Source: Omnitrophica WOR_2 bacterium RIFOXYA2_FULL_38_17
Lineage (GTDB): Bacteria; Omnitrophota; Gorgyraeia; Zapsychrales; Zapsychraceae
Length of the DNA: 64,000 nt
Assembly (NCBI GenBank): GCA_001805965.1
Contig: MHHG01000052.1
Coordinates: forward strand, 13,930-77,929
Direction: 5' to 3'
Shown: piece by piece, positions 7,618 to 63,210 of the stretch
Layout: each line of letters begins with the position of its first letter
Numbering within the stretch: position 1 is the stretch's first letter
Notes under the pieces: model-generated
What the model was told of the DNA's origin: nothing
The model's database searches: none
The model's input: only the letters and a program-made list of their open reading frames with translations
Made by a program: the position numbers and the translations under genes

Positions 7618-7624
7618 AACTGCT

Positions 7625-19103: not shown

Positions 19104-19145
19104 CAAGTACAATATTTGTTTTAATAGAAAAAGGAGCTTGATTTA

Positions 19146-23147: not shown

Positions 23148-23870
23148 CCTTCCAAGGTCTCTCAATATTTTAAACTTGCTCTCCGCAATTTGCCAATCTT
23201 CTTCGTTGTCAATGTCTTGTGCTTCAATCTCAGGGATAATTATTGGTACGGTTTTATCAGAGAAAATTTTCCTCTCTTTTATGAACTGTTTGACGTCAAG
23301 CCAATAGAATTGTCCTGTATCATGGTAAGTTGGATCGAAGTCTTGAGAGCGTTTTTCGTTGTTTTCAGGGTATAACATCTTGAGTAGATTGTTTTCAATT
23401 TTTAAAGCTCTTTGAACAGGGTAACTGTACTTCGTGACAGGAAAAGTCGAGTAAGCGTTATGTTTAATAAGAGTATCCATTCCATTTTTGAGATTTTGAG
23501 CTGTAATGAATGGGGCCGCTGGAAAAATGCAGCAGCATAGTTCAAAAATTTTCCCCATTTCTTTATGTTTTGCAAGTACTTCGCAAAGAGTAGAATTGAT
23601 TGTAGCAAAATCGTTTGAATTGGCTTCAGATCTATAAAAAGGGACTGAAGCTCCTAAGCTTTTTGCAATATTTGCAATATCTTTGCAATCAGTAGATACC
23701 ATAATTTCATCGAAACATTTTGATTTAATTGCAGCATCAATTGAATATTTGATAATGGGGTGTCCCAGGAAAAGTTTAAGGTTTTTGTTGGGGATACGTT
23801 TGCTTCCGCCTCTAGCTGTAATAATTGCAATTTTATTTTTTTTATTCATGCTTGCCTTGTAAAAATACAT
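23142..23870 (-). CDS. CMP-sugar (acylneuraminate-type) cytidylyltransferase
   Basis: IAIITARGGSKRIPNKNL N-terminal cytidylyltransferase signature. Confidence 0.8.
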   Translation of the reverse strand: MYFYKASMNKKNKIAIITARGGSKRIPNKNLKLFLGHPIIKYSIDAAIKSKCFDEIMVSTDCKDIANIAKSLGASVPFYRSEANSNDFATINSTLCEVLAKHKEMGKIFELCCCIFPAAPFITAQNLKNGMDTLIKHNAYSTFPVTKYSYPVQRALKIENNLLKMLYPENNEKRSQDFDPTYHDTGQFYWLDVKQFIKERKIFSDKTVPIIIPEIEAQDIDNEEDWQIAESKFKILRDLGRL

Positions 23871-31497: not shown

Positions 31498-32978
31498 TGA
31501 AAGTATTTATAATTACAGAAGGCGGAAAGGGAATAGGTCTTGGTCATATAACAAGATGCTTATCGATATATGAGGCTTTTGAAGATAGAGGGATAACACC
31601 TCTCTTTATTGTGATTGCTGATAGAAGTGTTAAAGCACTGCTTGGGGATAAAAATTATATTGCATTTAATTGGTTGAAGAATGAGAAAAAGTTACGTGAT
31701 TTATTAATAGATGTAGATATTGTAATTGTTGATTCTTATTTAGCAGATATTGTATTTTATAACAAAATATCAAAGAACATAAAAGTACCAGTTTTTATTG
31801 ATGATAACAATAGATTAAAATATCCTGAAGCCACTATAGTTAACGGTTCTATATGTGCTAAGGATCTTAATTATCCTAAAGGAAAGAATATTAAATATTT
31901 ATTAGGATCTGAATATGCTCCTATAAGAAAAGGATTTTGGGATGTCAAGAAGAGGAAAATTCGAGCAAAGATCAAGAATGTTATGATAACTTTAGGTGGG
32001 TGTGATTTGAAAGATACTTCAAGTAAATTGTTAGCAATGCTTGTAGATAATTATCCTGACTTAAATAAATATGTTGTTATTGCTAAAGGTTTTAGTGCCA
32101 GTAGTATTAATAGAATTAAAAAGAAGAAGGATAATCGCACACAGCTATTTTATTGCTTGGATTCTTCCGCAATGAAAAATTTAATGCAGAAATCTGATAT
32201 ATCTATCAGTGCTGGGGGACAGACTCTATATGAGCTTGCTCGAATGGGTTTGCCGACTATAGCAATTTGTGTTGCCGATAATCAGGTTAAGAATTGTAAT
32301 GGGTGGTTAAAAAAAAGATTTATTGAGTATGCGGGAGATGTTCAGGATAAGGATTTAGCAAAAAAAGTAAGAATAAGTATAAGAAGGATGGAACATAAGG
32401 ATTTTCGCGAAAAAAGCTCTCTTGCTGGTCAGGAAAAAGTAGACGGAAAAGGTGCGAAGCGAGTTGTTTATTATTGTTTAAATGAAGCTTTTAAAAATAC
32501 GATACAGCTAAGAAAAGCAAAGAAAACAGATGTGAATTTGGTCTATAAGCTTTCTAACTCAAAGGCAGTAAGAGAAGTTTCTTTCAATCCCGGAAAAATA
32601 TTATTAAAAGATCATGTTGAGTGGTTTAGCCAAAAAATTAAAGATAAAAAATGCTTGTTTCTTATTGCAGAGATTAAGGGTAAGTTTTTAGGCCAAATTA
32701 GATATGATGAAAATGGGGTAAGTGCGTTAATAAGTATTAGCTTGGATGAGAAATATAGAAGTAGCGGTGTGGGAAGTATTGTTTTACGGGGATCAATTCA
32801 AGAACTAAAACAGCTTAAGCCAAAACTAAAGTTGATAAATGCTTTTGTTAAAGAATCAAATGTCGTATCAATCAAGTTTTTTGAAAAGAATAATTTTGTT
32901 TACAAGGGAAGCAAATTGTTTGATGGTGTAAAAGCTTGTGAATATGTTTATTCTCTTAGAAGGAATTCATTAGTATGA
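31494..32978 (+). CDS. Fusion of PseG-like UDP-sugar hydrolase (N-terminus) and PseH-like GNAT N-acetyltransferase (C-terminus)
   Basis: N-terminus GGKGIGLGHITRCLSI (PseG/MurG-like); C-terminal ~170 aa GNAT fold (QIRYDENGVSALISISLDEKYRSSGVGS); 494 aa equals the sum of the two. Confidence 0.68.
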   Translation: MMKVFIITEGGKGIGLGHITRCLSIYEAFEDRGITPLFIVIADRSVKALLGDKNYIAFNWLKNEKKLRDLLIDVDIVIVDSYLADIVFYNKISKNIKVPVFIDDNNRLKYPEATIVNGSICAKDLNYPKGKNIKYLLGSEYAPIRKGFWDVKKRKIRAKIKNVMITLGGCDLKDTSSKLLAMLVDNYPDLNKYVVIAKGFSASSINRIKKKKDNRTQLFYCLDSSAMKNLMQKSDISISAGGQTLYELARMGLPTIAICVADNQVKNCNGWLKKRFIEYAGDVQDKDLAKKVRISIRRMEHKDFREKSSLAGQEKVDGKGAKRVVYYCLNEAFKNTIQLRKAKKTDVNLVYKLSNSKAVREVSFNPGKILLKDHVEWFSQKIKDKKCLFLIAEIKGKFLGQIRYDENGVSALISISLDEKYRSSGVGSIVLRGSIQELKQLKPKLKLINAFVKESNVVSIKFFEKNNFVYKGSKLFDGVKACEYVYSLRRNSLV

Positions 32979-34018
32979 TAAAGATCGGGAAGAAAAGTAT
33001 AGGAGAGAATAATTCAGTTTTTATAATTGCTGAGTTATCGGCCAATCATAATAAAGATTATCAAATTGCTAAAAAGACAATCAAGGCGGCAAAGTTAGCA
33101 GGCGCAGATGCTGTTAAGTTTCAGACATATACCCCTGATACAATCACTATAGATTCTAGTAATAAGTGTTTTCTGATCGATCAAGGAACTTTATGGGATG
33201 GAAAAACATTATATGAACTTTACCAAGAAGCTTATATGCCTTGGGAATGGCAACCAAAATTAAAAAAGTATGCAGAACAATTAGGTCTCGCATGCTTTTC
33301 ATCACCATTTGATAAGACGTCTGTTGAATTTCTAACCAAGATGAATGTTCCTGCGTACAAGATCGCATCTTTTGAAATTACGGATATTCCTCTTATTGAA
33401 TATGTTGCATCAAAAAATAAGCCTGTAATAATTTCGACGGGCATTGCGTCTAAGGATGAAATATTAGAGGCTGTGAGGGCATGTCGAAGAATGAAAAATT
33501 CCCAGATTGCTTTATTAAAATGTACTTCAGGTTATCCTGCGTCTTTTGAAAGTATGAATTTGAAAACAATTGCTGATATGAACAAGAGGTTTGGAGCAGT
33601 TGTTGGTTTATCAGATCATACATTGGGTATATCTGTTCCGGTAACAGCGGTAGCTATGGGAGCTAAAATAATTGAAAAGCATCTTACTCTAGACAGAAAT
33701 ATGGGTGGGCCTGATGAAGCATTTTCACTGGAACCTGAGGAGTTCAAATTAATGGTGGATTCTGTTAGGCAAGCAGAGAAGGCGCTAGGTAAGGTTACAT
33801 ATGTATTGAGTGAGGCAGTTAAGAGAAATAGAAAGTTTGCACGGTCTTTGTTTGTTGTAGAGGATATGACAAAAGGAGACAATTTTACCCACATAAATGT
33901 ACGTTCTATAAGGCCAGGTAATGGTATGAATCCTTATGATCTGAAAAAAGTTTTAAAAAAAAAGGCAAAAAGGAATATTAAAAAAGGAACCCCTTTGAAG
34001 TGGAGCTTAATTGAGTAA
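32975..34018 (+). CDS. pseI: Pseudaminic acid synthase (NeuB family, with C-terminal SAF domain)
   Basis: IIAELSANHN motif; 347 aa including the SAF/antifreeze-like C-terminal domain. Confidence 0.85.
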   Translation: MIKIGKKSIGENNSVFIIAELSANHNKDYQIAKKTIKAAKLAGADAVKFQTYTPDTITIDSSNKCFLIDQGTLWDGKTLYELYQEAYMPWEWQPKLKKYAEQLGLACFSSPFDKTSVEFLTKMNVPAYKIASFEITDIPLIEYVASKNKPVIISTGIASKDEILEAVRACRRMKNSQIALLKCTSGYPASFESMNLKTIADMNKRFGAVVGLSDHTLGISVPVTAVAMGAKIIEKHLTLDRNMGGPDEAFSLEPEEFKLMVDSVRQAEKALGKVTYVLSEAVKRNRKFARSLFVVEDMTKGDNFTHINVRSIRPGNGMNPYDLKKVLKKKAKRNIKKGTPLKWSLIE

Positions 34019-35924
34019 TGATATGAAAAAAAATATTGAGTCAAAGGAAAAAAAGAACAATGAAAGAGTTGTTGCTCTTGGATTAAATAAATTTGATCAG
34101 ATCGCCGCACTTTTTTACTGTTTCTTGAAGAATTACGATGCAGATGTTTATTCCTATGGAACATTTTCTTCGGGAATCCCTAATGGTGTTTTGTCAACAA
34201 TGAAAAAAGTGCCATTTTGGCAAAAATATTGGGAAAGTTCTGTTCATGAGAGATTTGGGAGGATTGGGGATAGCAAAGGATTTTTGTTTGAAGCCTACAA
34301 GGATGTTATTGATCTGACAATAATTTATTATAAAGAGCATTTTAGTGAAAAAAATTTGTTTGGAAAATATTGCGATAGGATATTTAAAACTAATAAGATG
34401 GAAGCTTTTATAAAAGATGAAATAGCTAAACAAATGATATCTTTTCTTGTTAATTTGAAACTGATAAGCTTTGATAATATTCAATTAAAAAAAAAATTAG
34501 TTATTATCATTAGTCCTATAAACAAGGTTGCGATCGATTATTTTGAAAAGAAGTATGGTGTGACGTTTGATATTGAAGAGGTTCGCTCATATAGTCCAGT
34601 ATTAGCTTGTTTTCAATATGCTATTTGGTTGATAAAAGAATGCTTTCTAAGGGGCCTGACTAAGGGGCAGAAAAGGAGAACATATAAACTTGCTAAAGCG
34701 GTAGTTTTTGGTTGTGAGCAGAAAACATTGAGTGATGATCTTCTGATAGATAATGATAAATTCCTTAAAGATGATATTTTATTCTTAAATTTTGAAAAGG
34801 AAAATAGTGCTTTTAATGATATGGGAGAAAAATTGAAGGAAAAAGGGTATTCTGTTGAGAATGTTAGTGATTTTAAGATAAGGATTGATTCTTTGCCAAA
34901 ACATTTACTTAATTATGTGTTTAGGCCTTTGAAAAGTTTGTTTTTTCTTCTGATTGAAGGAAAGTATTATTTTGTTTCAAATATTTGCCAGTTTTATAAG
35001 CATTGTTTTTTGTTGAGTATGATTTTTGAGAAAGTTAGTTTTAAAGTATTTTTGTCTCATAAGGATTGGGGTAATGTGGAAGAGACGATAGCATTGAATA
35101 TACATGGTTCACAGTGTGTAATTTTTCATTGGAGTGCTTTGAGGTTTTATAAAATATCGTCTCATGCCTTTGTTGCACATAATGTATATTATTTTTGGGG
35201 TCCTGCACATTCAGAATTTCAATATTCTAATGCTTTGATTGATAAAAGAGTTAATGTTGGCTGTATTTACAAGAAGGAATTCTCTGATTCTTTGAAGTCC
35301 GTGGAAGAGATTATATCAGAGATTAATGGTTTTGATAGCAGACGTCAATCAGTGCTTTTTTGTGATACATCATTTTCATCTAATTGTGAACAAACAGAGA
35401 TGAATTTTCTAGAGTTTATAAGAATTATGACAAGGTTTTGTGAGAGTCATGATGGTGTTAATGTTCTCTTTAAGCCTAAGAAATTAGATGGTGCGATAGA
35501 GTTAGCTTTGGGAGATAAGGCTGAAGAGTATAGGCAGTTAGTTAAGTGTTTAAGTAAGCGTGAGAATTATTTTCATTTTGATGGCGAAAAAGTTAGTTTT
35601 GTTAAGTTATTGTCTATTTCTGACCTTTGTGTAAGCATGGGTATGAACTCAACTTCGGTAGTCTCTTTGATTTGTAGAAAAGATGCACTGTTTTACGATA
35701 AGACAGGGAATAAGGAGCATCCATGGGCTAAAGAATATTTTAATATTTTGGTTTTTGATGATGAAGAAAAAATACTAAGACAGATAGATAGAATATTAAA
35801 AGGCGAATTTTCAAGTATTGATGTTTTAAGTGAACAAGAAATTAGAGAAATTGATGCGTTTGATGATGATCTCGCTATTGATAGGATTAGAGAAGATATT
35901 TCCATCTTGTGTGCTCTTAGTTGA
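34011..35924 (+). CDS. Large uncharacterized protein, possibly a nonulosonate-transferase-like glycosyltransferase (unknown family)
   Basis: 637 aa, no canonical motif recognised. Organisation resembles the other two ~600-aa unknowns at 43972 and 58856. Confidence 0.35.
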   Translation: MSNDMKKNIESKEKKNNERVVALGLNKFDQIAALFYCFLKNYDADVYSYGTFSSGIPNGVLSTMKKVPFWQKYWESSVHERFGRIGDSKGFLFEAYKDVIDLTIIYYKEHFSEKNLFGKYCDRIFKTNKMEAFIKDEIAKQMISFLVNLKLISFDNIQLKKKLVIIISPINKVAIDYFEKKYGVTFDIEEVRSYSPVLACFQYAIWLIKECFLRGLTKGQKRRTYKLAKAVVFGCEQKTLSDDLLIDNDKFLKDDILFLNFEKENSAFNDMGEKLKEKGYSVENVSDFKIRIDSLPKHLLNYVFRPLKSLFFLLIEGKYYFVSNICQFYKHCFLLSMIFEKVSFKVFLSHKDWGNVEETIALNIHGSQCVIFHWSALRFYKISSHAFVAHNVYYFWGPAHSEFQYSNALIDKRVNVGCIYKKEFSDSLKSVEEIISEINGFDSRRQSVLFCDTSFSSNCEQTEMNFLEFIRIMTRFCESHDGVNVLFKPKKLDGAIELALGDKAEEYRQLVKCLSKRENYFHFDGEKVSFVKLLSISDLCVSMGMNSTSVVSLICRKDALFYDKTGNKEHPWAKEYFNILVFDDEEKILRQIDRILKGEFSSIDVLSEQEIREIDAFDDDLAIDRIREDISILCALS

Positions 35925-36018
35925 AAGTCAGATTAATATGTTTTTAATAATATAAGAAATTTAGATTGTTTTAGGGTATTGGAAAATTTAATATTGTAAA
36001 AAAGGGGAGGGAAGTACA

Positions 36019-36867
36019 ATGTCAATATTTGTAATTGCAGAAATAGGTATTAATCATAATGGGGACTTGGGTATAGCGAAACAGCTGATTGATGTTGCGA
36101 AGGTGGCTGGTGTTGATGCGGTGAAGTTCCAAAAAAGAACGATTGATTTGGTTTATACAAAGGAATTCTTAGACTCACCGCGTGAAAGTCCATGGGGAAC
36201 AACGCAACGAGCTCAAAAGGAAGGTCTTGAATTTGGATTGAAGGAGTATAAAGAAATCGATGCCTATTGCAAAGAAAAAGGCATTGAGTGGTTTATGTCT
36301 GCGTGGGATATTGAAAGTCAAAAATTTTCGCGACAGTTTAATTGTAAATACAATAAAGTAGCCTCAGCAATGATTGTTTATGAAAATTTGCTTAAGGAAA
36401 TTGCTTCAGAAAAAAAGCATACATTCATTTCGACTGGGATGTCGGAAGAGTCTCAGATTGACAGAGCTGTAGAAATATTTAAAGAATATGATTGTCCGTT
36501 TGAGCTTATGCATTGTGTTTCGACTTATCCTATGAACGATGAGGATGCAAATTTGAATCGTATTAAAGTTCTTCGTGATAAGTATAAGTGTGACGTGGGT
36601 TATAGTGGGCATGAAGTTGGTCTTGCAGTATCTTATGGTGCTGCTTCACTTGGAATTTCATCCCTTGAAAGACATATTACAACTGATCGTGCAATGTATG
36701 GTTCGGATCAAGCTGCTTCAGTTGAGCCAATGGGATTAATTCAATTGGTTGGTGCAGTTCGAAAAATTGAAAAAGCAATGGGCGATGGTAATATTGCAAT
36801 GAATGAAAAGGAAGTAGGTGTAGCAAAAAAATTAAGAGCTCATATTCCTTTTGAGGCTAAGAAATAG
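36019..36867 (+). CDS. NeuB-family sugar-acid synthase lacking the SAF domain (second synthase)
   Basis: VIAEIGINHNGDLGIAKQLI N-terminal NeuB TIM-barrel signature, but only 282 aa (no C-terminal SAF domain). Confidence 0.7.
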   Translation: MSIFVIAEIGINHNGDLGIAKQLIDVAKVAGVDAVKFQKRTIDLVYTKEFLDSPRESPWGTTQRAQKEGLEFGLKEYKEIDAYCKEKGIEWFMSAWDIESQKFSRQFNCKYNKVASAMIVYENLLKEIASEKKHTFISTGMSEESQIDRAVEIFKEYDCPFELMHCVSTYPMNDEDANLNRIKVLRDKYKCDVGYSGHEVGLAVSYGAASLGISSLERHITTDRAMYGSDQAASVEPMGLIQLVGAVRKIEKAMGDGNIAMNEKEVGVAKKLRAHIPFEAKK

Positions 36868-36879
36868 AGGTTTATTATT

Positions 36880-37623
36880 ATGGCAGACGTTGTAGCAATA
36901 ATTCCTGCTCGTTCAGGATCTAAGGGAGTCGTTGATAAAAATATTAAATTGTTATCAGGCTATCCCTTAATTGCATATAGTATTGCTGTTGCAAAACTTG
37001 CAAGAGGTGTTGATCGAGTTATTGTTTCAACAAATTCTAAGGAATATGCCAACATAGCGTGTGAGTATGGTGCAGAAGTTCCTTTTTTACGTCCGGAAGA
37101 AATATCGAGTGATTATAGTACAGATTATGATTGCATGAAGCATGCATTAGATTGGATAAAGAACGAAGAGGGCGCTATTCCTAGTTATTTAGTTCACTTA
37201 CGGCCGACAACACCATTTAGAGATCCTGGGCTTATTGAAAAAGCTATTATGTGTTTAAAACAAGATAAAGAAGCTACTGCATTGAGGTCCGTGCATGAAA
37301 TGTCAGAATCAGCGTATAAGTCATTTGAAGTAGACGGAGATTATTTAAAAACAATTGGATCAAATTCTTTTGATTTGGATGAAGCTAATAAACCAAGACA
37401 AAGTTTTAATAAAACCTATCAGGCTAATGGTTATGTTGATATTTTAAAAACATTATACATTATTGACAATCATAAACTGCATGGAAATCGAGTAGCAGCG
37501 TTTGTTACACCATATGTAGTTGAGGTAGATGTTTTGGAGGATTTTGACCATTTGGAGTATCAAGCATCAAAAAATCCAGATATTGTTAAAAAATTGTTTT
37601 TAAAAAAGGAAATGAACTTATGA
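36880..37623 (+). CDS. CMP-sugar cytidylyltransferase (second paralog)
   Basis: VAIIPARSGSKGVVDKNIKLL signature. Confidence 0.8.
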   Translation: MADVVAIIPARSGSKGVVDKNIKLLSGYPLIAYSIAVAKLARGVDRVIVSTNSKEYANIACEYGAEVPFLRPEEISSDYSTDYDCMKHALDWIKNEEGAIPSYLVHLRPTTPFRDPGLIEKAIMCLKQDKEATALRSVHEMSESAYKSFEVDGDYLKTIGSNSFDLDEANKPRQSFNKTYQANGYVDILKTLYIIDNHKLHGNRVAAFVTPYVVEVDVLEDFDHLEYQASKNPDIVKKLFLKKEMNL

Positions 37624-38999
37624 GTTATCGATTTTCACAAATACCTGTTGATGTTCCGTTTGTTTCAACAAAGCATCGCACTATAAAGACTGCAATTCCA
37701 GCGTCAGAGACATTGAGTGTTTTATTGGAACAAGAAAAGTATGAATCTCACTCTATGCATGGACAGCTGCCTGTGGTTTGGGACAAGGCAGAGGATTTTC
37801 AAGTTTACGATAAGTGTGGTAATTGTTGGATAGATTTTACATCTACAATTTTTGTTGCAAATGCTGGGCACTCAAATCCTCGAATAGTAGATGCTTTAAG
37901 AAAAGCGATTGATAAAAAGTTACTGCATACATATACATATGCTCATGAGGCTCGATCTTTGTTTCTGAAGAAATTAATAGAATCAACACCTTCCCAATTT
38001 GAAAAGGCTTTTTTATTGTCAGCTGGAACAGAAGCGACGGAATGTGCAGTAAAGTTAATGAGAATGCATGGTCAAGAGATACATCCTTCTAAGGTTGGCA
38101 TTGTTTCTTTTGAAGGTGCGATGCATGGGAGGACTATGGCAGCTGAAATGCTTAAAGGGAAGCAAGGAAAATTGACTTGGGTTGGACATGATGATCCTAA
38201 TATTTATCACCTTCCATTTCCTTATCCTTGGGATGAAAAAGGATTATCTAGGAGTGAATGTGATTGGGAACAATGTTTTGAAGATAATATTGATAAATTG
38301 AAATCTAGTGGTTTGGATTTTGAAAATATTGCAGGTTTTATTATTGAATCCTATTTAGGTTGGGGGGCAATTTTTTATCCAAAAGACTATATTAAAGCTA
38401 TTGCCAAATTTGCCAAAAAGCATAATTGTTTAGTTACTTTTGATGAGATTCAAGGAGGATTTGGAAGAAGTGGGAAGTTGTTTGTTTATGAACATTATAA
38501 TGTTGAGCCAGATATGCTTTGTCTTGGAAAATCATTGAGTGGAAGTTTACCATTATCAGCAGTTATTGGTAGTAAAAAAATTATGGATTTGCCGGGGATT
38601 GGTTCTATGAGCAGTACTCATTCTGCGAACCCACTTTGTTGTGTTGCTGGATTAGCAAATCTAGAAGCTATTGAGTCTGAAAATTTAGTTGAAGAATCTG
38701 CTAGAAAGGGCGTGATATTGCATAAACGTCTTAACGAATTAAAAAATAAATATTCAAATAGAATCTCATGGGTCCTTGGGAAAGGCCTGGTTGCTGGTTT
38801 GCTTTTTAAAGATCCTGCGACAGGAAAGCCTGATGTATTATTTCCAAGTCGAGTTTGTGAAAAAGCTATGCAAAAGGGATTGCTTCTTGTTCATACTGGA
38901 AGAGAGTCAATAAAGATAGGACCACCGTTAACGATTTCAGACGAGGCCCTAGTAGAAGGGCTTGATGTACTTGAGGAATCAATCGAAGAACTTAGTTGA
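37620..38999 (+). CDS. Class III PLP-dependent aminotransferase (GSA-aminomutase-like)
   Basis: LSAGTEATECAVKLMR and TFDEIQGGFGRSGKLF (DEIQ.GFGRTG class III motif). Confidence 0.8.
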   Translation: MSYRFSQIPVDVPFVSTKHRTIKTAIPASETLSVLLEQEKYESHSMHGQLPVVWDKAEDFQVYDKCGNCWIDFTSTIFVANAGHSNPRIVDALRKAIDKKLLHTYTYAHEARSLFLKKLIESTPSQFEKAFLLSAGTEATECAVKLMRMHGQEIHPSKVGIVSFEGAMHGRTMAAEMLKGKQGKLTWVGHDDPNIYHLPFPYPWDEKGLSRSECDWEQCFEDNIDKLKSSGLDFENIAGFIIESYLGWGAIFYPKDYIKAIAKFAKKHNCLVTFDEIQGGFGRSGKLFVYEHYNVEPDMLCLGKSLSGSLPLSAVIGSKKIMDLPGIGSMSSTHSANPLCCVAGLANLEAIESENLVEESARKGVILHKRLNELKNKYSNRISWVLGKGLVAGLLFKDPATGKPDVLFPSRVCEKAMQKGLLLVHTGRESIKIGPPLTISDEALVEGLDVLEESIEELS

Positions 39000-39661
39000 C
39001 GCAGGAAGGATTTTCTATGTTTCATGAAGCTTTAAATGAAAAATGTCTCGAAATTTATATTGATCGTGTAAAAAACATTGATCTTATATGGGTCGAGCAA
39101 TTTTTAGATATTATTTCTGAGAGAATTTGTTCTGATAGTTATTTTCGATTAAACGATATAGGGTGCAATCTTGGTCAATTTTGGAAGGGATTGAAGAAGC
39201 GTGAATGGGGAAAGAATATAAATTATTTTGGATATGATTGTGACGATCTTTATCTTGAAGAAGCAAAGAAAGTATTTTCTGAAATATCTGATAATTTATT
39301 CAAGTTTGATGTTACTCAGGAAAAGCCTCCCGAGTGCGATATTACTGTTTGTTCTGCTACTCTAGAGCATCTAGAGAATCTTCAACCAGGTCTTGATAAT
39401 ATGTTACAATCTACCAAAAAATTATTTTTATTGAGAACATTCTTAGGGGAAGAAACTTTATGTTCAAAGAGAATGATAGAAGATGCAAAAGTGCCTTATA
39501 ACGTTCATCAGTTTTCATTTAGAGAATTATTTTTAGCACTTGAAAAGAATGGTTTTTCTTCAAAGGTGATTCGTGATAAATATACGGATTCCATGCCTGT
39601 TTATCTTGATGATGGTATGATTCGTACAATATTTATAGTAGCTGGGAGCAAAGTGCAATGA
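38996..39661 (+). CDS. Methyltransferase-fold protein (divergent class I SAM MTase-like)
   Basis: Degenerate motif I (LNDIGCNLGQF) and post-I acidic residue; weak. Confidence 0.4.
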   Translation: MTQEGFSMFHEALNEKCLEIYIDRVKNIDLIWVEQFLDIISERICSDSYFRLNDIGCNLGQFWKGLKKREWGKNINYFGYDCDDLYLEEAKKVFSEISDNLFKFDVTQEKPPECDITVCSATLEHLENLQPGLDNMLQSTKKLFLLRTFLGEETLCSKRMIEDAKVPYNVHQFSFRELFLALEKNGFSSKVIRDKYTDSMPVYLDDGMIRTIFIVAGSKVQ

Positions 39662-40086
39662 TAAAAGATATTCGACATACAGGTATAGTTGTTGCGGATT
39701 TGGAGGCATCACTAAAATTTTATCAAGATATTCTTGGCTTTAGCATTGTTAAGAAAATGGATGAAACAGGAGATTTTATTGATAATATTCTATTACTGGA
39801 GAATGTAAAGGTTACAACTGTAAAGATGGCGTCTTCATCAGGGCAAATGATAGAGCTGTTGAAATATCAATCTCATCCTGCAGATCAAAAAAAACATGAT
39901 ATTAATGATGTTGGAATTTCTCATATTGCATTTACCGTTGATGATTTGGACGTGGTGTATAAAAGGTTAATGGATAATAAAATTCAATTTAATTCATCTC
40001 CACAAATTTCTCCGGATGGTTATGCAAAAGTTGTTTTTTGTCGGGCTCCAGAAGGGACAATGATTGAACTAGTAGAGGTTTTATAA
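39658..40086 (+). CDS. VOC/glyoxalase-family protein
   Basis: IRHTGIVVADLE N-terminal and HIAFTVDDLD paired beta-alpha-beta-beta-beta module motifs. Confidence 0.65.
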   Translation: MIKDIRHTGIVVADLEASLKFYQDILGFSIVKKMDETGDFIDNILLLENVKVTTVKMASSSGQMIELLKYQSHPADQKKHDINDVGISHIAFTVDDLDVVYKRLMDNKIQFNSSPQISPDGYAKVVFCRAPEGTMIELVEVL

Positions 40087-40802
40087 TGGCATCAAATTCA
40101 AATAATATGCAAAAAGATTATGTTGCTGTAACTTATAACGAAAAAGATAGACCTTTTACGCAGTATCCTGAGAAGTTATCGAGTTATTTGTTTTCAAGAT
40201 ACAATTTGAAAAAGGGAAGTAAACTTTTGGATTTAGGATGTGGCCGAGGGGAATTCTTGAAGGGATTTATACAATGTGGTCTTGAAGGGTGTGGAGTTGA
40301 TCAGTCAGTTATATCAAAGTCTGTTTGTCCTGAGGCTGAAATAGTTCAGTCGGATTTAGAGAATAAACCTTTGCCATATGAGAACAATGCTTTTGATATT
40401 GTTTTTTCAAAATCTGTCATTGAGCATTTTTATTATCCTGAGAAATTAGTTAAAGAAATATACCGTGTTGTTAGGCCTGGTGGATTGATAATCACAATGG
40501 TTCCAGAATGGAAATCAGTTTATAAAATATTTTATGACGACTATACGCATAGAACACCTTTTACAATAAACTCTCTTAGAGAAATATTGTTTATGCATAA
40601 TTTTGAAGATATAAATGTTGAAAGATTTATGCAGCTTCCGTTTTTATGGTCATCGCCTTGGTTGAAGCCTTTTTGTTCTATTGTAGCTATGACAGCACCT
40701 TGTGTATTGAAGCCATATAGTAAACTAGTGAGGTTTTCAAAAGAAATTATGCTTCTTTCAACTGCTGTTAAACCCAAGAGTGTTGTGGAGAGTAAGAAAT
40801 GA
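40086..40802 (+). CDS. Class I SAM-dependent methyltransferase
   Basis: LLDLGCGRGEF motif I, FDIVFSKSVIEH motif II/III. Confidence 0.75.
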   Translation: MASNSNNMQKDYVAVTYNEKDRPFTQYPEKLSSYLFSRYNLKKGSKLLDLGCGRGEFLKGFIQCGLEGCGVDQSVISKSVCPEAEIVQSDLENKPLPYENNAFDIVFSKSVIEHFYYPEKLVKEIYRVVRPGGLIITMVPEWKSVYKIFYDDYTHRTPFTINSLREILFMHNFEDINVERFMQLPFLWSSPWLKPFCSIVAMTAPCVLKPYSKLVRFSKEIMLLSTAVKPKSVVESKK

Positions 40803-41599
40803 GTAAATGCTTAAATGGATTATATTGTATTCATCTTGAATTAACTAGTAGGTGTAATAAGAATTGTTGGATGTGTGGTCGTCGTAAAATTGATAGAGAG
40901 TACCCTGAAATTGCTGCTAATTATGGTGAAATGGACTTTGAGTTGGTTAAGAAAATTTCTGAACAGGTGCCGGAGGACATAGTTGTTCAGTTTCATAATA
41001 ATGGTGAACCGCTTTTATATCCAAAGTTTGGAGAGGTAGTAAAGTTATTTGAAAATCAAATAAAATGTATGGATACAAATGCCAAGCTTATTATTGAACG
41101 GGCTGATGAAATAATTGATAGCATTGATACTATTACCATTTCAATATTTGAAAATGATCCTGAAGGGGATGAGCAATTTGAACTAGTCAAGGAATTTATA
41201 AAAATTAAAGGTGATAGAAAGCCAAATATTGTATTTAGATGTATGGGTGATGTTGGCGTGGAAAAATGGAAAGAATTAGGAGGTATTATCGCAACGAGAA
41301 CATTGCATAATCCTTTGGGAAGTTTTGAGTATAGAAAGTCTCCAACGGTTCCTGAAATAGGAATATGTTTAGAAATTTTGAACCATATGGCTATTGATAG
41401 GTTTGGGAAAGTTTCAATATGTGTTCGGTTTGACCCTCAGCGTGTGGGAGTTATTGGAGATGCGAATATTGATTCGCTATATGATATTTGGAATGGTGAA
41501 AAGAGAAAAGAGTGGGTTGAGTATCATAAGCAAGGAAAGAGGGACAAAATACCTCTGTGTAGTAAATGTGATTTTTGGGGAGTAGCTACTAGTTCTTGA
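40799..41599 (+). CDS. Radical SAM enzyme with C-terminal Cys-rich (SPASM/twitch-like) region
   Basis: ELTSRCNKNCWMCGRR (CxxxCxxC) plus C-terminal CVRF...CSKCDFWG cysteines. Confidence 0.7.
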   Translation: MSKCLNGLYCIHLELTSRCNKNCWMCGRRKIDREYPEIAANYGEMDFELVKKISEQVPEDIVVQFHNNGEPLLYPKFGEVVKLFENQIKCMDTNAKLIIERADEIIDSIDTITISIFENDPEGDEQFELVKEFIKIKGDRKPNIVFRCMGDVGVEKWKELGGIIATRTLHNPLGSFEYRKSPTVPEIGICLEILNHMAIDRFGKVSICVRFDPQRVGVIGDANIDSLYDIWNGEKRKEWVEYHKQGKRDKIPLCSKCDFWGVATSS

Positions 41600-41620
41600 A
41601 ATTGAATCTAAATAATATTA

Positions 41621-42508
41621 TTGGTGTTAAAAGTGACAAATCAAATGAAGTGTTATTTATGTGAGGGAACAAAGCTCGTTGAGAGAGAAGGTAGTGTTCG
41701 AGATATGTCAGGATTGGGAATTCTTGAGTGTGCATCTTGTGGATTAGTTTTCTTGTCGTCGTTTGATCATATCAACGAAGGATTTTATGAAGAGTCAGGG
41801 ATGCATGGTGACGATGATCTAGATATTCAATCTTGGCTAAATGAGACAGAGTGGGATGATGAGCGTCGTTTTCAGTATTTTAAAGCGGAATTGCAAAATC
41901 GAAAGTTATTAGATTTTGGGTGTGGGGCAGGAGGTTTTCTTCTAAAAGCTCGGGATTTATCTGAACAGGCATATGGTGTTGAATCTGAAAGCCGATTAAA
42001 AAGTCACTTTCAGAATAATGGTTTGAGTGTTTTTCAAGAATTATCTGAAATTCCAAAAGATGTTCAAGATGATGGGTTTGATATTATAACTATGTTTCAT
42101 GTTTTAGAACATATACCAAAACCGAAATCACTGTTGATTGAGTTGAGCAAATTATTAAAAGACGATAGTCAGATTATTGTTGAGGTTCCAAATGCGAGCG
42201 ATGCATTATTGACCTTGTTTAAAAATAAGCCATTTTCAAATTTTACTTATTGGAGCTGCCATTTGTTTTTATATACCACTGAAACATTACAAATGTTATT
42301 TGATCAAGTAAACTTTAAAGTGAATTATATTAAACAAATTCAAAGGTATCCACTGTCAAATCATTTATATTGGTTGGCAAAGGGAAAGCCTGGTGGACAT
42401 CAGAAGTGGAAGTTTCTCGATTCTCCGGAACTTAATGCTATTTACGAAAAGCAACTTGGGTCTTTTGGTGGGTGTGATACGATTTTGGCGAGTATTACTA
42501 GAAATTAA
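41621..42508 (+). CDS. Class I SAM methyltransferase with N-terminal Zn-ribbon
   Basis: CYLCEG...CASCG ribbon, then LLDFGCGAGGF motif I. Confidence 0.75.
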   Translation: MVLKVTNQMKCYLCEGTKLVEREGSVRDMSGLGILECASCGLVFLSSFDHINEGFYEESGMHGDDDLDIQSWLNETEWDDERRFQYFKAELQNRKLLDFGCGAGGFLLKARDLSEQAYGVESESRLKSHFQNNGLSVFQELSEIPKDVQDDGFDIITMFHVLEHIPKPKSLLIELSKLLKDDSQIIVEVPNASDALLTLFKNKPFSNFTYWSCHLFLYTTETLQMLFDQVNFKVNYIKQIQRYPLSNHLYWLAKGKPGGHQKWKFLDSPELNAIYEKQLGSFGGCDTILASITRN

Positions 42509-42565
42509 GAGTATTAAGAAGAAATTGAAAGTATTCTATTGTAATGATTGTCTGGAGAGTATTAA

Positions 42566-43957
42566 ATGAAAATTTTATTTGTCGTGTATGATAATGGATC
42601 TTATATTCATAGTTTTCCTATTGGGATTGCATATCTTGCATCGGCTCTTCGAAAAAATAATCATGAAGTTGTCATTTATAATCAAGATATTCATCATTAT
42701 AAAGATGAGGGTTTAACTAGGTATTTAGATGAAAATGATTTTGATGTTGTTGGTATAGGTGTTATTGCAGGATACTATCAGTATAGAAAACTTCTAAAAA
42801 TTTCTGAAGCAATCAATACTTCTTCTAATCGGCCTAAACATTATGTTTTGGGAGGCCATGGTCCGACGCCTGATCCAGAATATTTTCTTAATATAACAGG
42901 TGCAGATATTGTTGTTATGGGTGAAGGTGAAGTTGCTTTTCTGAATTTGCTAAAAGCTATTGAGTGTAAGGAAGCTTTGAACAATGTGTTGGGCATAGCT
43001 TTTAAGGAAGAAGATAAGATAATTATTAATCCTAGACAGCCTCTTATTGAAGATATTGATACTATTGAGTGGCCAGCATATGATATGTTTGCTATTGATC
43101 ATTATAGGTTGACTCGTTCGCCAAATTCAACAAATGAAGATTTTTCTATGCCGATTCTTTCTGCGCGAGGTTGTACTTTTAAATGTAATTTTTGTTATCG
43201 TATGGATGAAGGCTATCGGACAAGAAAGCCTGAAGCAATTATTGAGGAAATTCAATATCTTCGAGAGAATTATGGGATTAACTATATAGAATTTATGGAT
43301 GAGCTTCTTATGTCTTCTAAACAACGCATCATTGAAGTTTGTGAAGCGATTATAAAATCGAAGTTAAAATTTAAATGGTATTGCAATGGGAGATTAAATT
43401 ATGCTAAAGCTGAAGAGTTGAAGCTAATGAAAAAGGCTGGATGCGTTTTTATCAATTATGGTATTGAAGCTTTTGATGATGATGTTTTGAGGAAAATGAA
43501 CAAATCTTTATCTACGACTCAGATAGAAGAAGGGATTGTGGCTACTTTGAAAGAACGAATCAGCCCAGGTTTTAATATAATTTTCGGACATATTGGAGAT
43601 ACCAAAGAGACGTTAAACAAAGGTGTGGAGTTTTTATTAAAATATGACGATGGTGCCCAAATGAGAACAATTAGGCCTGTAACACCATATCCAGGATCAC
43701 CACTATACTATCATGCCATTGAGAAAGGGTTGCTTAAGGATTGTGAAGATTTTTATGAGAATAAGCATTCTAATTCTGATTTATTGGCAGTTAATTTTAC
43801 AGATATGACAGACAATGAATTTCATGAAAGCCTTTTTGAGGCGAATAGCCGTTTGCTAGAAAATTATTTTCGAAACAAGAAGAAAAGTGTTATTCAACAA
43901 GCAAGGGAATTGTATCTTGATCATAATGTTAATTTTAGAGGATTTAGGCAGACTTAA
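42566..43957 (+). CDS. B12-binding-domain radical SAM enzyme (class B)
   Basis: N-terminal B12-binding Rossmann-like region, ILSARGCTFKCNFCY. Confidence 0.85.
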   Translation: MKILFVVYDNGSYIHSFPIGIAYLASALRKNNHEVVIYNQDIHHYKDEGLTRYLDENDFDVVGIGVIAGYYQYRKLLKISEAINTSSNRPKHYVLGGHGPTPDPEYFLNITGADIVVMGEGEVAFLNLLKAIECKEALNNVLGIAFKEEDKIIINPRQPLIEDIDTIEWPAYDMFAIDHYRLTRSPNSTNEDFSMPILSARGCTFKCNFCYRMDEGYRTRKPEAIIEEIQYLRENYGINYIEFMDELLMSSKQRIIEVCEAIIKSKLKFKWYCNGRLNYAKAEELKLMKKAGCVFINYGIEAFDDDVLRKMNKSLSTTQIEEGIVATLKERISPGFNIIFGHIGDTKETLNKGVEFLLKYDDGAQMRTIRPVTPYPGSPLYYHAIEKGLLKDCEDFYENKHSNSDLLAVNFTDMTDNEFHESLFEANSRLLENYFRNKKKSVIQQARELYLDHNVNFRGFRQT

Positions 43958-43971
43958 GGATGGTATTTTAA

Positions 43972-45861
43972 ATGAATTTGATTTTAATAGAAAATGACCA
44001 AAGCATAGATAAAGTCATATCTCATCCAGAATATGTTCAAGGAAGAGACGTGATTTTATGTTTTTGTTATCTTTCATATTGGTATTTAAAGAATCAGAGC
44101 GACAAACATATTTGCGTATTTAATGATGACCTTTTTTTTAAAGAGGATTATGATTGTATGCATTCTGAGACAGAAAGATTTGCTTCGACTTGGTTCTACC
44201 AAGATGGTGCGGATGTAACATTGTTTAATAATGTCTCTTTTGGCGATTTGATAAAACCAGCTATTGGAAGAACATATATGTCTCATATTTTAGTTAAATA
44301 TGGTGAAGCTATTCGTAAATCTGTAGAAAAGTGGGGCAAAATCAATTGTATTTATTATGATTTTACAAATAAAAGTAATTACTTTAACTATCTTCAAAAC
44401 GATGGTGGTAGATTTTTCAATAAAAAAAGACTTGTTGAATGTGTTGCTAAACAATTAAATATAAAGACTTCAGAAATTATAACAGATAAGGTGTTGCCGA
44501 CTCCATATCTTCATGAGAAAGTTTGCATAGATTTTAACGGGAAGCTCCAAGAAAACAAAAAAGATCTACGTGGCACGATATGTTATTTTGCAAAATTGAT
44601 TCATAATGCTATAAGCCGTTTTCTATCTTTGTTTAATGGTACATTTAATGCAGGGAAAGTTTACTTTTTTAACTATTACAACATTAATAGTTTTGTACAA
44701 CATCACGCCAAAGATCTTGTGATCCCAAATTTTGGATTAAAGGATCATTTGAAAACGCTTTTCTCAGGATTGACATTTGCAGACATTGATGATGAGAAAT
44801 ATGAATTAGATAAGCCTGAGAATAGTTATCTGAAATTTATTCGGGATAGATTGTTGGATGAGGGTGTTGTTCGATCTGATTGTGACTTTGTATTCAATGG
44901 TATTGATTATTCTTCGATTTATGAGCCTGCTTTAAAGAACTTTGTCGAATGTCTTATTCCTTTTTATTTAGCGCATATGGTTAAGGTTAGGAATTTTCTC
45001 AAGAGGATGAGAGTTGCAAAGTTAGTTGTGAATGATATCACAGACGAGAAAAATGGTGTTATTATTGCAGCATGTCGACAATCCAATGTAAAAGTTTATT
45101 TTGTTGATCATGGAATCAAAGCATGGAGATCGGCGTATCCTTTACCATTTGTTGCTCCTGATGTTTATTTTGAAGCAAGTACTAGACCCTTTTACGAAAT
45201 GCCATTATTGCCCGAACCGCTTGGAACGCCTATTATGGATCAGCATGCTGAAAGACCAAGAAAGAAGGTTTCTAGGATAAAAAAAATTCTTTTTTTGACT
45301 TTTGCTGATAGTCATTATGCAAGATTAGATAGGTTAGCTTATAGGGGTAAATATTATGCAGAAATATTTTCTGTATTCAAAGGCTTGTCAGAGATGGGTA
45401 TGGAACTTTATTATAGGACTCATAGTGAAAATCAAGCTTATCATGATTATATGTTTGATCTTTTTGATGTAGATAGGACAACTTTTAAATTAAAGCATGG
45501 AGGTAGATTTTGTGATGTTATACGAGAGATGGATTTAATGGTGTGTAATTTTACTACATGTTTTTTTGAAGCTCAAGCTTCAGGTATTCCTACGATATTT
45601 CTTGAGCCGCATGTTATTATGGATGCTCTTCAGATGCCTTTGAGTGGAGAGCATATGAAAGATGTTATTCGTGTGTCAACTGGCAAAGATTTGATGAATA
45701 TTGTTAAACGTAATAAGGATAATCCTGCTGAATTAAATAAGTTTCTGGATGCTTTCATTGAAACAAATGGTGTCCCTTATATTGGAAATCTAGATGGAAA
45801 GGCAAGTGAGAGAATTTCTGATTATATATTTAATGATAAAGTAAGGAATCTTTCTGAATAA
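43972..45861 (+). CDS. Large uncharacterized protein with GT-B/TagF-like C-terminal half (putative glycosyl- or glycerophospho-transferase)
   Basis: 629 aa; C-terminal KKILFLTFADSHY...YYRTHSEN...ASGIPTIFLEPH resembles the donor-binding half of TagF/KpsS-like GT-B enzymes (HP motif). Confidence 0.4.
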   Translation: MNLILIENDQSIDKVISHPEYVQGRDVILCFCYLSYWYLKNQSDKHICVFNDDLFFKEDYDCMHSETERFASTWFYQDGADVTLFNNVSFGDLIKPAIGRTYMSHILVKYGEAIRKSVEKWGKINCIYYDFTNKSNYFNYLQNDGGRFFNKKRLVECVAKQLNIKTSEIITDKVLPTPYLHEKVCIDFNGKLQENKKDLRGTICYFAKLIHNAISRFLSLFNGTFNAGKVYFFNYYNINSFVQHHAKDLVIPNFGLKDHLKTLFSGLTFADIDDEKYELDKPENSYLKFIRDRLLDEGVVRSDCDFVFNGIDYSSIYEPALKNFVECLIPFYLAHMVKVRNFLKRMRVAKLVVNDITDEKNGVIIAACRQSNVKVYFVDHGIKAWRSAYPLPFVAPDVYFEASTRPFYEMPLLPEPLGTPIMDQHAERPRKKVSRIKKILFLTFADSHYARLDRLAYRGKYYAEIFSVFKGLSEMGMELYYRTHSENQAYHDYMFDLFDVDRTTFKLKHGGRFCDVIREMDLMVCNFTTCFFEAQASGIPTIFLEPHVIMDALQMPLSGEHMKDVIRVSTGKDLMNIVKRNKDNPAELNKFLDAFIETNGVPYIGNLDGKASERISDYIFNDKVRNLSE

Positions 45862-47992: not shown

Positions 47993-48984
47993 ATAAATTG
48001 ACATGTCCAAGTTGTAAATCTGCTGATTGTCGTTTTCTTGATGATTATCGATATTTTAAGTCTGAAGACCGCAAATATCTTGGGGATATGAAAGTTTATC
48101 AGTGTCAGAGTTGTAGTCTTGGGTTCAACAGCCCGATGCCCGATAAGGCGGCATTAGATCTTTATTTTAAAATTGTTTATCGTCAATCGAATCGACCGCA
48201 TTTTAAAAAAGATCCACGAAAAGCAGAAATTTTGTTATGGCAGAAAGCTCAGTATGCCTACATGTCTCAATTTTGTGATTTTGATAAACTTCAATCGATT
48301 GCAGATTATGGCGCAGGATACGGCATGTTATTGCGAGAAATAAAACTTCACCATCCTGATATTAAAATGTCAGCATATGATCCTGATGTGCAAAGTCTTG
48401 AGTATTTGAAGTCTTTTGATATTGAAACATATGATCTTTTTAAGTGTTTGGATTCTGCAGAGAGTAAGAATAAATATGATTTAATTATTGCTTCGGGCAG
48501 TATTATGTATGATTCTAATCCACACTGCTTCTTTGATTTTGCAAATAAAAATTTATCAGAAAAGGGAAAGGTTTTTTTAGAAGTGCCCAATCATGTGTTT
48601 TCTGATGATTCGTATACAAAAAGACCATATGATGGTCCAGTAATGTTTTATTTTTCGATAGATTCGTTAAAAAAACTTGTGGATGTTAATAATTTGGAAT
48701 TGGAACACATAACAACTGCAAGCACGGAACTTGATGATGCATTACAATATAGATTGAATCAGTATAATGCTTTTAATCAAAAAGAAGAATCCTTTATTGC
48801 TAAGATTATGAAAGGTTTTAAATCAAAATTGAAGATGATGATACCTAAACGCATTAAAAAAGCAATAAAAGCTTTACTTTATGATGAAGACTTGGATATT
48901 GCTAAGAAATTGGCACCATTTGAGTATGGTGGGAAGCGATGGACAATACGATGTATTATTACAAGGAATTTGAAAAGTGAATAA
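47989..48984 (+). CDS. Class I SAM methyltransferase with N-terminal Zn-ribbon (paralog of the 41621 gene)
   Basis: CPSCKS...CQSCSLGF ribbon; DYGAGYGMLL motif I. Confidence 0.65.
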   Translation: MNKLTCPSCKSADCRFLDDYRYFKSEDRKYLGDMKVYQCQSCSLGFNSPMPDKAALDLYFKIVYRQSNRPHFKKDPRKAEILLWQKAQYAYMSQFCDFDKLQSIADYGAGYGMLLREIKLHHPDIKMSAYDPDVQSLEYLKSFDIETYDLFKCLDSAESKNKYDLIIASGSIMYDSNPHCFFDFANKNLSEKGKVFLEVPNHVFSDDSYTKRPYDGPVMFYFSIDSLKKLVDVNNLELEHITTASTELDDALQYRLNQYNAFNQKEESFIAKIMKGFKSKLKMMIPKRIKKAIKALLYDEDLDIAKKLAPFEYGGKRWTIRCIITRNLKSE

Positions 48985-53819: not shown

Positions 53820-53834
53820 TAGGAGGTCAAATAT

Positions 53835-54275: not shown

Positions 54276-54279
54276 AAAA

Positions 54280-55763: not shown

Positions 55764-55779
55764 TAGAGAGGGATGTTTT

Positions 55780-63189: not shown

Positions 63190-63210
63190 GAAGGATTTTG
63201 GGAGATTAAA

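Follow-up and report, generated by a model that had tools for sequence, protein, structure and literature searches.

The locus described here raises the question of what a second, shortened synthase of the NeuB family makes in a bacterium that already carries a full-length relative of this enzyme for pseudaminic acid (Pse). The window (the whole 64,000-nucleotide stretch of DNA that was analysed) comes from Omnitrophica WOR_2 bacterium RIFOXYA2_FULL_38_17 (assembly GCA_001805965.1, contig MHHG01000052.1, positions 13,930–77,929 of the forward strand), and the open reading frame (ORF) in question lies at 36019–36867 on the + strand, followed by genes for a cytidylyltransferase and a class III aminotransferase. 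An earlier note, made from the letters alone, had proposed that a second ulosonic acid is produced here in parallel with Pse. We keep this as the best reading because the synthase is intact, has its own cytidylyltransferase and is accompanied by a conserved aminotransferase. Based on comparisons at the sequence level, we consider it reasonably probable that the 36019 protein is a naturally SAF-less NeuB of a phosphosugar-using branch, and that it starts a second pathway to a cytidine monophosphate (CMP)-linked ulosonic acid, with amination and methylation.

The 282-residue protein encoded at 36019–36867 matches the Pfam family NeuB alone (PF03102, E 7.8e-66), over residues 23–257 and 239 of the 241 profile positions. 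It stops 25 residues past the barrel, and Pfam found no SAF domain in it; the coordinates and domain content given in the earlier note were exact. Its scores fall below both equivalog cut-offs (230.6 against 399.65 for NeuB, TIGR03569, and 174.3 against 340.25 for PseI, TIGR03586). The junction at 36868–36880, where the earlier note had allowed for a frameshift, showed the short length to be genuine: the TAG stop at 36865–36867 is followed, 12 nucleotides on, by the complete N-terminus of the cytidylyltransferase (IPARSGSKG). A SAF profile built from full-length relatives and run against the six-frame translation of the whole window matched PseI only; the profile comprises six sequences and is shallow, so that very divergent SAF domains could escape it. 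The possibility that a small ORF supplies SAF in trans was rejected on this same search. More than 100 homologue clusters have exactly 282 residues at 82–86% identity to the 36019 protein, and among 1.8 billion representatives (50% clustering level) there were 1421 matches at E ≤1e-30, the nearest 150 of which are mostly 270–300 residues long. An identical sequence is recorded in the metagenome-assembled genome Omnitrophica WOR_2 bacterium GWF2_38_59. The AlphaFold (AF2) model is a triosephosphate isomerase (TIM) barrel with a predicted local distance difference test (pLDDT) value of 82 and ten disordered residues at the end; Foldseek aligned it with 6NCS, 8H2C (PseI) and 1XUU (NeuB) at a template modelling (TM) score of 0.83, with 6NCS as the top structural hit in the PDB. 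We conclude that the protein is short by nature and not through an artefact. SAF-less NeuB proteins are already documented as a class, since about 30% of 13,941 UniProt nonulosonic acid synthases, nearly all from environmental organisms and without an assigned function, were reported to lack SAF (PMC8208679), and since 6NCS is a solved SAF-less structure. Our literature search for a characterised SAF-less bacterial NeuB, or for this combination of genes, found only that survey.

We aligned the 36019 protein with NmNeuB (2WQP/1XUU numbering), PseI of C. jejuni, 6NCS and a set of 73 relatives without SAF. The histidines that bind the metal, H198 and H219 (NmNeuB H215 and H236), the catalytic glutamates E8 and E217 (E25 and E234) and the lysines and serines that bind phosphoenolpyruvate (PEP), K36, K113, S116, S138 and S196 (K53, K129, S132, S154 and S213), are invariant in all 73 relatives, as are Q38, Y170 and D230 (Q55, Y186 and D247). 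The barrel has thus retained its PEP, metal and catalytic residues, a point that the earlier note had left to such an alignment. Differences are found at the sugar site and beyond it. NmNeuB F112 is replaced by tryptophan, and the SAF residues F288 and R314 of NmNeuB have no counterpart. The β2–α2 loop is longer in this family and carries the nearly invariant basic residues R40, R55 and K/R67, and a K-L-R motif is kept in the short C-terminal tail. The 36019 protein looks like an intact and active NeuB synthase, functional by prediction, that differs at the sugar site.

The Pse pathway of the window has a gene set of its own. PseB (29356), PseC (30343) and a PseG/H fusion (31494) are accompanied by PseI (32975–34018, + strand), which contains NeuB and SAF and passes its equivalog cut-off (TIGR03586, 495.7 against 340.25), in agreement with the earlier description of this gene as a full family member. 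PseF is encoded at 23142–23870 on the − strand and likewise passes (TIGR03584, 277.7 against 205.7); WbuX, HisH and HisF amidotransferase genes stand alongside the Pse genes. The 247-residue cytidylyltransferase that follows the short synthase (36880–37623, + strand; CTP_transf_3, 6.1e-21; IPARxGSKG motif) reaches 135.3 on the PseF model, against the cut-off of 205.7. It is 27–30% identical to the PseF of the window (30%), to a third cytidylyltransferase of the window and to the CMP-Kdn synthetase of Prymnesium parvum (Kdn, ketodeoxynonulosonic acid), and its nearest solved structures are NeuA and CMP-Neu5Ac synthetases (Neu5Ac, N-acetylneuraminic acid). A role for this enzyme as the PseF of the Pse pathway was considered and ruled out by the cut-off-passing PseF at 23142–23870. 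Because that PseF is present, the 36880 enzyme is extra and dispensable for Pse, which bears out the claim that the short synthase has a cytidylyltransferase of its own. A hydrolysing 2-epimerase of the NeuC/LegG type did not turn up among the window ORFs scanned, so the short synthase is here without a supply of precursors of the neuraminic (Neu) or legionaminic (Leg) acid type.

The third gene encodes a 459-residue class III (omega-type) aminotransferase dependent on pyridoxal 5'-phosphate (37620–38999, + strand; Aminotran_3, E 7.7e-90; DEIQ...LGKS motif), and its start overlaps the upstream stop by 4 nucleotides. The earlier note had described it as resembling glutamate-1-semialdehyde aminomutase; class III membership was confirmed, and this closer resemblance was not. 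Its top NCBIfam and PDB matches are acetylornithine and γ-aminobutyrate (GABA) aminotransferases and class III racemases, with HemL outside the best 25; within the PDB alone, GABA aminotransferases and class III racemases come closest. Enzymes of class III usually interconvert terminal aldehydes or ketones and amines. The substrate of the 37620 aminotransferase may be a sugar phosphate, with amination preceding condensation, or the acid formed afterwards, free or linked to CMP, or else a side-chain.

These three genes recur together well beyond the Omnitrophota. A scan with one genome per species gave 572 relatives, and 80 loci (numbered with L) were kept. Partners within 6 kb were counted in the 27 close loci (54–84% identity) in which a short synthase was called. 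In 21 of them the synthase stands next to a homologue of the 36880 enzyme, and in some proteins the two are fused; the succession of synthase and cytidylyltransferase noted earlier is a conserved one. The class III aminotransferase is present in 16 of the 27 loci and a vicinal oxygen chelate (VOC) protein in 12. The order synthase, cytidylyltransferase, aminotransferase, VOC protein, methyltransferase is found in Planctomycetota, Desulfuromonadales, Desulfobacula, Elusimicrobiota, Scalindua, Thiotrichales, SAR86 and Methanoregula, and a radical S-adenosylmethionine (SAM)/SPASM gene is also part of the recurring order; in Pelagibacteraceae the genes are clustered in a different order. The Methanoregula synthase is 63% identical to the bacterial one, which suggests, at the level of sequence, that the cassette was transferred between domains. 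The cultured Azospirillum thermophilum carries the cassette on a plasmid, next to a complete Leg cluster with its own 358-residue NeuB and its own cytidylyltransferase, an arrangement that mirrors the Pse cluster and cassette of the window. A Pelagibacteraceae single-cell genome (L021, 7109–8840) carries two SAF-less NeuB paralogues in tandem, one 53% identical to the Kdn-9-phosphate synthetase of P. parvum and the other 67% identical to the short synthase of the window.

Several relatives have genes that could bear on the sugar precursor. In Methanoregula (L022 and L023, 4442–8831), genes for transketolase (split into N and C subunits), a transaldolase/FSA protein, a GmhA-like isomerase and a KdsC-like phosphatase precede that for the SAF-less NeuB in this order, and a plasmid cluster of Methylomagnum contains transketolase subunits, the aminotransferase, a short-chain dehydrogenase/reductase (SDR), the synthase and a phosphatase of the haloacid dehalogenase (HAD) family. 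GmhA homologues in the relatives match 2XBL at E 1e-43 and remain under the gmhA cut-off; in 13 of 28 close loci they are next to or fused with a KdsC-type phosphatase directly upstream of the synthase. A xylose-isomerase-like TIM barrel with weak similarity to L-ribulose-5-phosphate 3-epimerase is also frequent, as are two SDRs with a GFO-type oxidoreductase. PtmF was considered as an analogy for the SIS gene and dropped, the P. shigelloides table giving it as a 326-residue oxidoreductase; by analogy it may suit the GFO and SDR pair.

The nature of the substrate was approached through the basic loop and the phosphatases. A motif in the β2–α2 loop, KR...(W/Y/F)GxT...(K/R)xxLE(F/L), is present in the short synthase, in 72 of 73 relatives, in the P. 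parvum Kdn-9-phosphate synthetase and in a presumed orthologue of Bacteroides BT1714; the same motif is absent in PseI, NmNeuB and 6NCS. We infer that it would serve phosphate binding. The α2–β2 loop of the human enzyme has been said to favour a phosphorylated substrate (PMC8208679), and the P. parvum enzyme converts mannose 6-phosphate (Man-6-P) and not free mannose (PMC6200933, with the sequence in its supplement). This enzyme (CAMPEP_0191217894) has 312 residues and no SAF, is 36% identical to the short synthase (E 4e-46), and is sister to its clade in a neighbour-joining tree. The presumed BT1714 orthologue is a 346-residue NeuB with SAF, encoded on a Bacteroides contig beside a 99%-identical copy of BT1713. 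We regard the identities of 36% to the P. parvum enzyme and 29% to this protein as too low for the transfer of a substrate. A link between SAF loss and phosphosugar use was ruled out, since the presumed BT1714 orthologue keeps SAF; SAF loss does not define phosphosugar use.

In many relatives a small HAD phosphatase adjoins the synthase; its best NCBIfam matches are the Kdn-9-phosphate phosphatase and the KdsC family, and these neighbours are 30–41% identical to the characterised BT1713 Kdn-9-phosphate phosphatase. Within 6 kb of the synthase, 11 of the 27 close loci and 29 of 40 distant ones encode a KdsC-family phosphatase. Fusions include cytidylyltransferase, HAD and NeuB in one protein (P0152), HAD with NeuB (P0156 and P0268) and NeuB with cytidylyltransferase (P0172 and P0182). 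Cytidylyltransferase–HAD fusions adjoin the synthase in Chloroflexi loci, and a fusion of HAD with a GmhA-like SIS domain is directly upstream of it in L007 and L028. Based on the fusions with KdsC-type phosphatases and the loop motif common to Kdn-9-phosphate synthases, the substrate is most likely an aldose phosphate rather than a free aldose. The earlier idea of a condensation of PEP with an aldose thus stands as far as the intact synthase is concerned, with the free sugar giving way to the phosphorylated one indicated by the relatives. Nothing specific to an octulosonic acid was found, and the amino-octulosonic acid named in the earlier note was not upheld.

Downstream of the aminotransferase, the + strand continues with genes for putative tailoring enzymes. 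A SAM-dependent methyltransferase (38996–39661; Methyltransf_12), overlapping the upstream gene by 4 nucleotides, has a homologue in the Scalindua locus L005. It is followed by the VOC/glyoxalase-fold protein (39658–40086; Pfam Glyoxalase, 2.2e-19), which is conserved directly after the aminotransferase and shows weak PDB matches to glyoxalase I and methylmalonyl-CoA epimerase, and by a second SAM-dependent methyltransferase (40086–40802; Methyltransf_11, cluster c18) with homologues of 44–70% identity in L002–L004, L007, L010, L016 and L024. Start/stop overlaps of 4 nucleotides link the genes from 37620 to 40802, which are translationally coupled. The small radical SAM/SPASM enzyme of cluster c30 (40799–41599; Radical_SAM and SPASM), a candidate anaerobic dehydrogenase, has homologues of 52–80% identity in L002–L005, L008 and L010, and in the PDB it matches only NifB and BtrN, a radical SAM dehydrogenase from the butirosin pathway. 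A third SAM-dependent methyltransferase (41621–42508; Methyltransf_23, cluster c12) has homologues of 54–57% identity in L004, L007 and L009, and a B12-binding radical SAM enzyme (42566–43957; B12-binding and Radical_SAM, cluster c27), probably a C- or other methyltransferase, is 65% identical to its homologue in L005, with weaker ones in L004, L007 and L010. The radical SAM/SPASM gene is shared by the window and L002, L003, L004, L008 and L010, and these five loci have no TIM-barrel, SDR or HAD genes within 8 kb; conversely, the gene is missing in all ten loci that have the TIM-barrel gene. Tentatively, the 40799 protein could be an oxygen-independent dehydrogenase feeding the aminotransferase. 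A scan of 33900–44100 for promoters and terminators was uninformative, the counts being equal to those in shuffled sequence. A combination of methyltransferase, VOC protein (methylmalonyl-CoA-epimerase-like) and B12 radical SAM enzyme occurs twice in the window, at 17761–20747 and 38996–43957.

According to the model that we favour, the 36019 synthase would join PEP to a phosphorylated aldose at its aldehyde group, giving a 3-deoxy-2-ulosonic acid phosphate; the likeliest aldose is a hexose 6-phosphate or heptose 7-phosphate of manno configuration. The phosphate would be stripped by a phosphatase, which in relatives is of the KdsC type and either neighbours the synthase or the cytidylyltransferase or is fused to one of them, and the 36880 enzyme would then form the CMP-sugar. 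The small radical SAM/SPASM enzyme, or an SDR or GFO dehydrogenase in other lineages, would oxidise a hydroxyl, and the class III aminotransferase would turn the resulting carbonyl into an amine. Methyl groups would be added by the methyltransferases and the B12 radical SAM enzyme, and the VOC protein would isomerise or epimerise an intermediate. The expected product is a second CMP-activated ulosonic acid, made for the same surface glycan locus and in parallel to Pse. The genes of the relatives fit either hexose 6-phosphate (manno) or heptose 7-phosphate, and do not tell the two apart.

Several observations weigh against this model. Its main gap for this locus is the phosphatase, as tblastn found no KdsC-type enzyme in the window (E >1). 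The link between the loop motif and phosphosugars comes from one characterised enzyme, one presumed orthologue and a literature remark on the human enzyme. Met118 takes the place of NmNeuB E134; 26 of 28 close relatives have Met there, and the Chloroflexi branch has Ser or Ala. The closest solved relatives of the 37620 aminotransferase act on amino acids and not on sugars, and this enzyme could make a side-chain instead. The similarity of the 40799 enzyme to BtrN is weak (E 8e-9). Finally, the window has a single GmhA-like gene, at a distance of 26 kb and next to a GHMP kinase, and this gene may be part of a guanosine diphosphate (GDP)-heptose pathway.

Three other explanations of the short synthase were weighed against the same evidence. 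That it is a truncated or decaying, functionless NeuB paralogue resulting from a frameshift or sequencing error might be supposed from its being some 65 residues shorter than PseI and NeuB, and yet the length is shared by more than 100 clusters at 82–86% identity, the catalytic residues are invariant, the K-L-R motif is kept in the C-terminal tail, the six-sequence SAF profile matched nothing but PseI in any frame of the window, and a SAF-less structure is already solved (6NCS); the conservation data refute decay, and we leave it practically no probability. A role as a redundant or alternative synthase of the PseI/LegI type, which would join PEP to the free 2,4-diacetamido-2,4,6-trideoxy-hexose provided by the Pse genes and so give a Pse or Leg stereoisomer, finds support in the map, with the gene 2 kb downstream of pseI in one co-directional array and the cassette near Leg or Pse genes also in A. 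thermophilum, L004, L006 and L011. Nevertheless, the scores of the short synthase are far under both equivalog cut-offs (PseI and NeuB), its relatives occur as fusions with phosphatases for sugar-acid phosphates, and many related loci have no Pse or Leg genes within 8 kb. It also lacks the SAF domain, which in NmNeuB supplies Arg314 (R314A and R314K mutants, PDB 4IPI and 4IPJ). The paper behind these two entries reportedly found Arg314 essential for catalysis. Altogether, we consider a PseI/LegI-type function highly improbable.

More weight, if still well short of an even chance, is given to a plain Kdn-9-phosphate synthase that would, together with the 36880 enzyme, lead to ordinary CMP-Kdn, with the remaining genes serving to decorate something else in the glycan, for example a different sugar or an N-acyl side-chain. 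Among characterised enzymes, a SAF-less Kdn-9-phosphate synthetase is indeed the closest, with signature residues in common at 36% identity, the HAD neighbours in relatives best match the Kdn-9-phosphate phosphatase model, and the aminotransferase resembles amino-acid enzymes. Against this, the tandem of P. parvum-type and query-type paralogues in L021 argues for different products, so that the type found in the window is not simply the Kdn-9-phosphate synthase type; the order of cytidylyltransferase, aminotransferase and VOC protein is fixed beside the synthase across phyla; and GmhA-like isomerases and transketolase/transaldolase genes would be needless for supplying Man-6-P. We think this explanation unlikely, and continue to favour the aminated and methylated second ulosonic acid.

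A more specific version of the favoured pathway is put forward only tentatively, as we hold it doubtful. It would have the synthase use D-glycero-D-manno-heptose 7-phosphate, derived from sedoheptulose 7-phosphate by the GmhA-like isomerase, and give a C10 3-deoxy-2-ulosonic acid 10-phosphate that is then dephosphorylated, CMP-activated, aminated and methylated. This proposal draws on the GmhA homologues by the synthase (13 of 28 loci), the transketolase and transaldolase genes of Methanoregula and the transketolase of Methylomagnum; counting against it, no GmhA-like gene is adjacent to the synthase in the window, and a GmhA-like isomerase could equally give Man-6-P from fructose 6-phosphate. 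A C10 acid, if real, would be the missing member of the series formed by 3-deoxy-D-arabino-heptulosonate 7-phosphate (DAH7P, C7), Kdo8P (C8; Kdo, 3-deoxy-D-manno-octulosonic acid) and Kdn9P (C9). CMP-linked α-keto acid sugars with a longer carbon backbone have been observed in Magnetospirillum by mass spectrometry, with no genes assigned (bioRxiv 10.64898/2026.04.20.719630), and under the C10 proposal the cassette could be their genetic basis.

Nonulosonic and related acidic sugars cap the surface glycans of bacteria and archaea and shape interactions with phages, hosts and particles. The cassette is unusually conserved and very widespread, reaching SAR11, SAR86, anammox bacteria, candidate phyla, sulfate reducers and methanogens. 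Our analysis turns the annotation "N-acetylneuraminate synthase family protein" into a testable pathway with a suggested substrate class (an aldose phosphate), a possible phosphosugar motif and a nine-gene set, and a possible outcome is a new ulosonic acid with amino and methyl substituents and perhaps a chain of more than nine carbons.

The surrounding glycan locus contains further features. A module at 52908–56424 encodes a 2-hydroxyacid dehydrogenase, a cupin, an SDR, the third CTP_transf_3 gene and a HAD gene; many Chloroflexi loci (L046, L062, L063, L067 and L070) have a similar set of cytidylyltransferase, 2-hydroxyacid dehydrogenase, SDR and MptE-like (Maf-type) genes just downstream of the SAF-less NeuB. 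The HAD ORF (55678–56424) has a TTG start that gives an 86-nucleotide overlap with the preceding cytidylyltransferase ORF, and its true start is probably later since the HAD domain begins at residue 36. At 48977–52883, a 729-residue protein unites a pyruvate kinase barrel, a PUA-like domain and ATP sulfurylase, and genes for adenosine 5'-phosphosulfate (APS) kinase and a sulfotransferase come next; this looks like a module for 3'-phosphoadenosine 5'-phosphosulfate (PAPS) supply and sulfation, the link to pyruvate kinase being unusual. Three proteins of about 600 residues without a Pfam domain (34011–35924, 43972–45861 and 58856–60616), which are not paralogues by BLAST, may be unusual glycosyltransferases; two of them have weak matches to the Leptospira-type "PFTS motif" and TIGR04326 surface carbohydrate families. 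A GDP-heptose-type pathway seems to begin at the end of the window (62200–63771) and to run off it, judging from the GHMP kinase and GmhA-like SIS isomerase encoded there. An FkbH-domain protein (13185) and a DltB-like MBOAT protein (16244–17668, − strand) flank the start of the glycan locus and suggest acyl or glyceryl decoration. The only Rfam match in the window is a cobalamin riboswitch (RF00174, 48.6 bits) at 7617–7765, directly upstream of a TonB-dependent receptor (7912–9915), a pairing that fits the four B12-binding radical SAM genes (19146, 42566, 57341 and 60623).

Compared with known systems, the short synthase has the fold and the metal, PEP and catalytic residues of the SAF-containing NeuB, LegI and PseI enzymes (NmNeuB 1XUZ, C. 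jejuni PseI 8H2C). It differs from them in the absence of SAF and of an Arg314 or Phe288 equivalent, in the replacement of E134 by Met and F112 by Trp, and in the extra basic β2–α2 loop. The Leptospira borgpetersenii "sialic acid synthetase" 6NCS, a structural genomics entry, is SAF-less like the short synthase and its best PDB match (E 1e-42, TM 0.83); the two are only 33% identical, however, and 6NCS has no basic β2–α2 loop and keeps an acidic residue at the E134 position, which marks it as an independent SAF-less lineage.

The Kdn-9-phosphate synthases of P. parvum and Bacteroides thetaiotaomicron (BT1714) resemble the short synthase in their NeuB barrel and PEP-dependent condensation. R40, G60, T62, K/R67, E71 and the K-L-basic tail are common to the short synthase, the P. 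parvum enzyme and the presumed BT1714 orthologue; the P. parvum enzyme further has W96 in common with the short synthase, and like it is non-acidic at NmNeuB position 134. The phosphatase–synthase–cytidylyltransferase gene logic of the BT1713/CMP-Kdn synthetase system is likewise found in the relatives. In contrast, at only 29–36% identity to the Kdn-9-phosphate synthases the short synthase forms a separate subfamily, which stands in tandem with the P. parvum type in L021, and its cassette goes beyond theirs with a class III aminotransferase, a VOC protein, methyltransferases and radical SAM enzymes, and has no phosphatase gene in the window.

The Kdo pathway runs through KdsD, KdsA, KdsC and KdsB, and the 8-amino derivative Kdo8N is formed by KdnB and KdnA. 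Its logic of an SIS isomerase, PEP with an aldose phosphate, a KdsC-family phosphatase and a CMP-transferase is that of the relatives, and the late oxidation and transamination of the ulosonic acid predicted for the cassette resemble the formation of Kdo8N. Unlike in Kdo synthesis, the condensing enzyme is of the NeuB and not the KdsA type and the isomerase is GmhA-like rather than KdsD; compared with Kdo8N formation, the aminotransferase is of class III instead of the DegT-like KdnA, and the candidate oxidant is a radical SAM/SPASM enzyme. The composition of the pathway matches no characterised route, and the short synthase probably represents a new subfamily within the known phosphosugar-type NeuB group.

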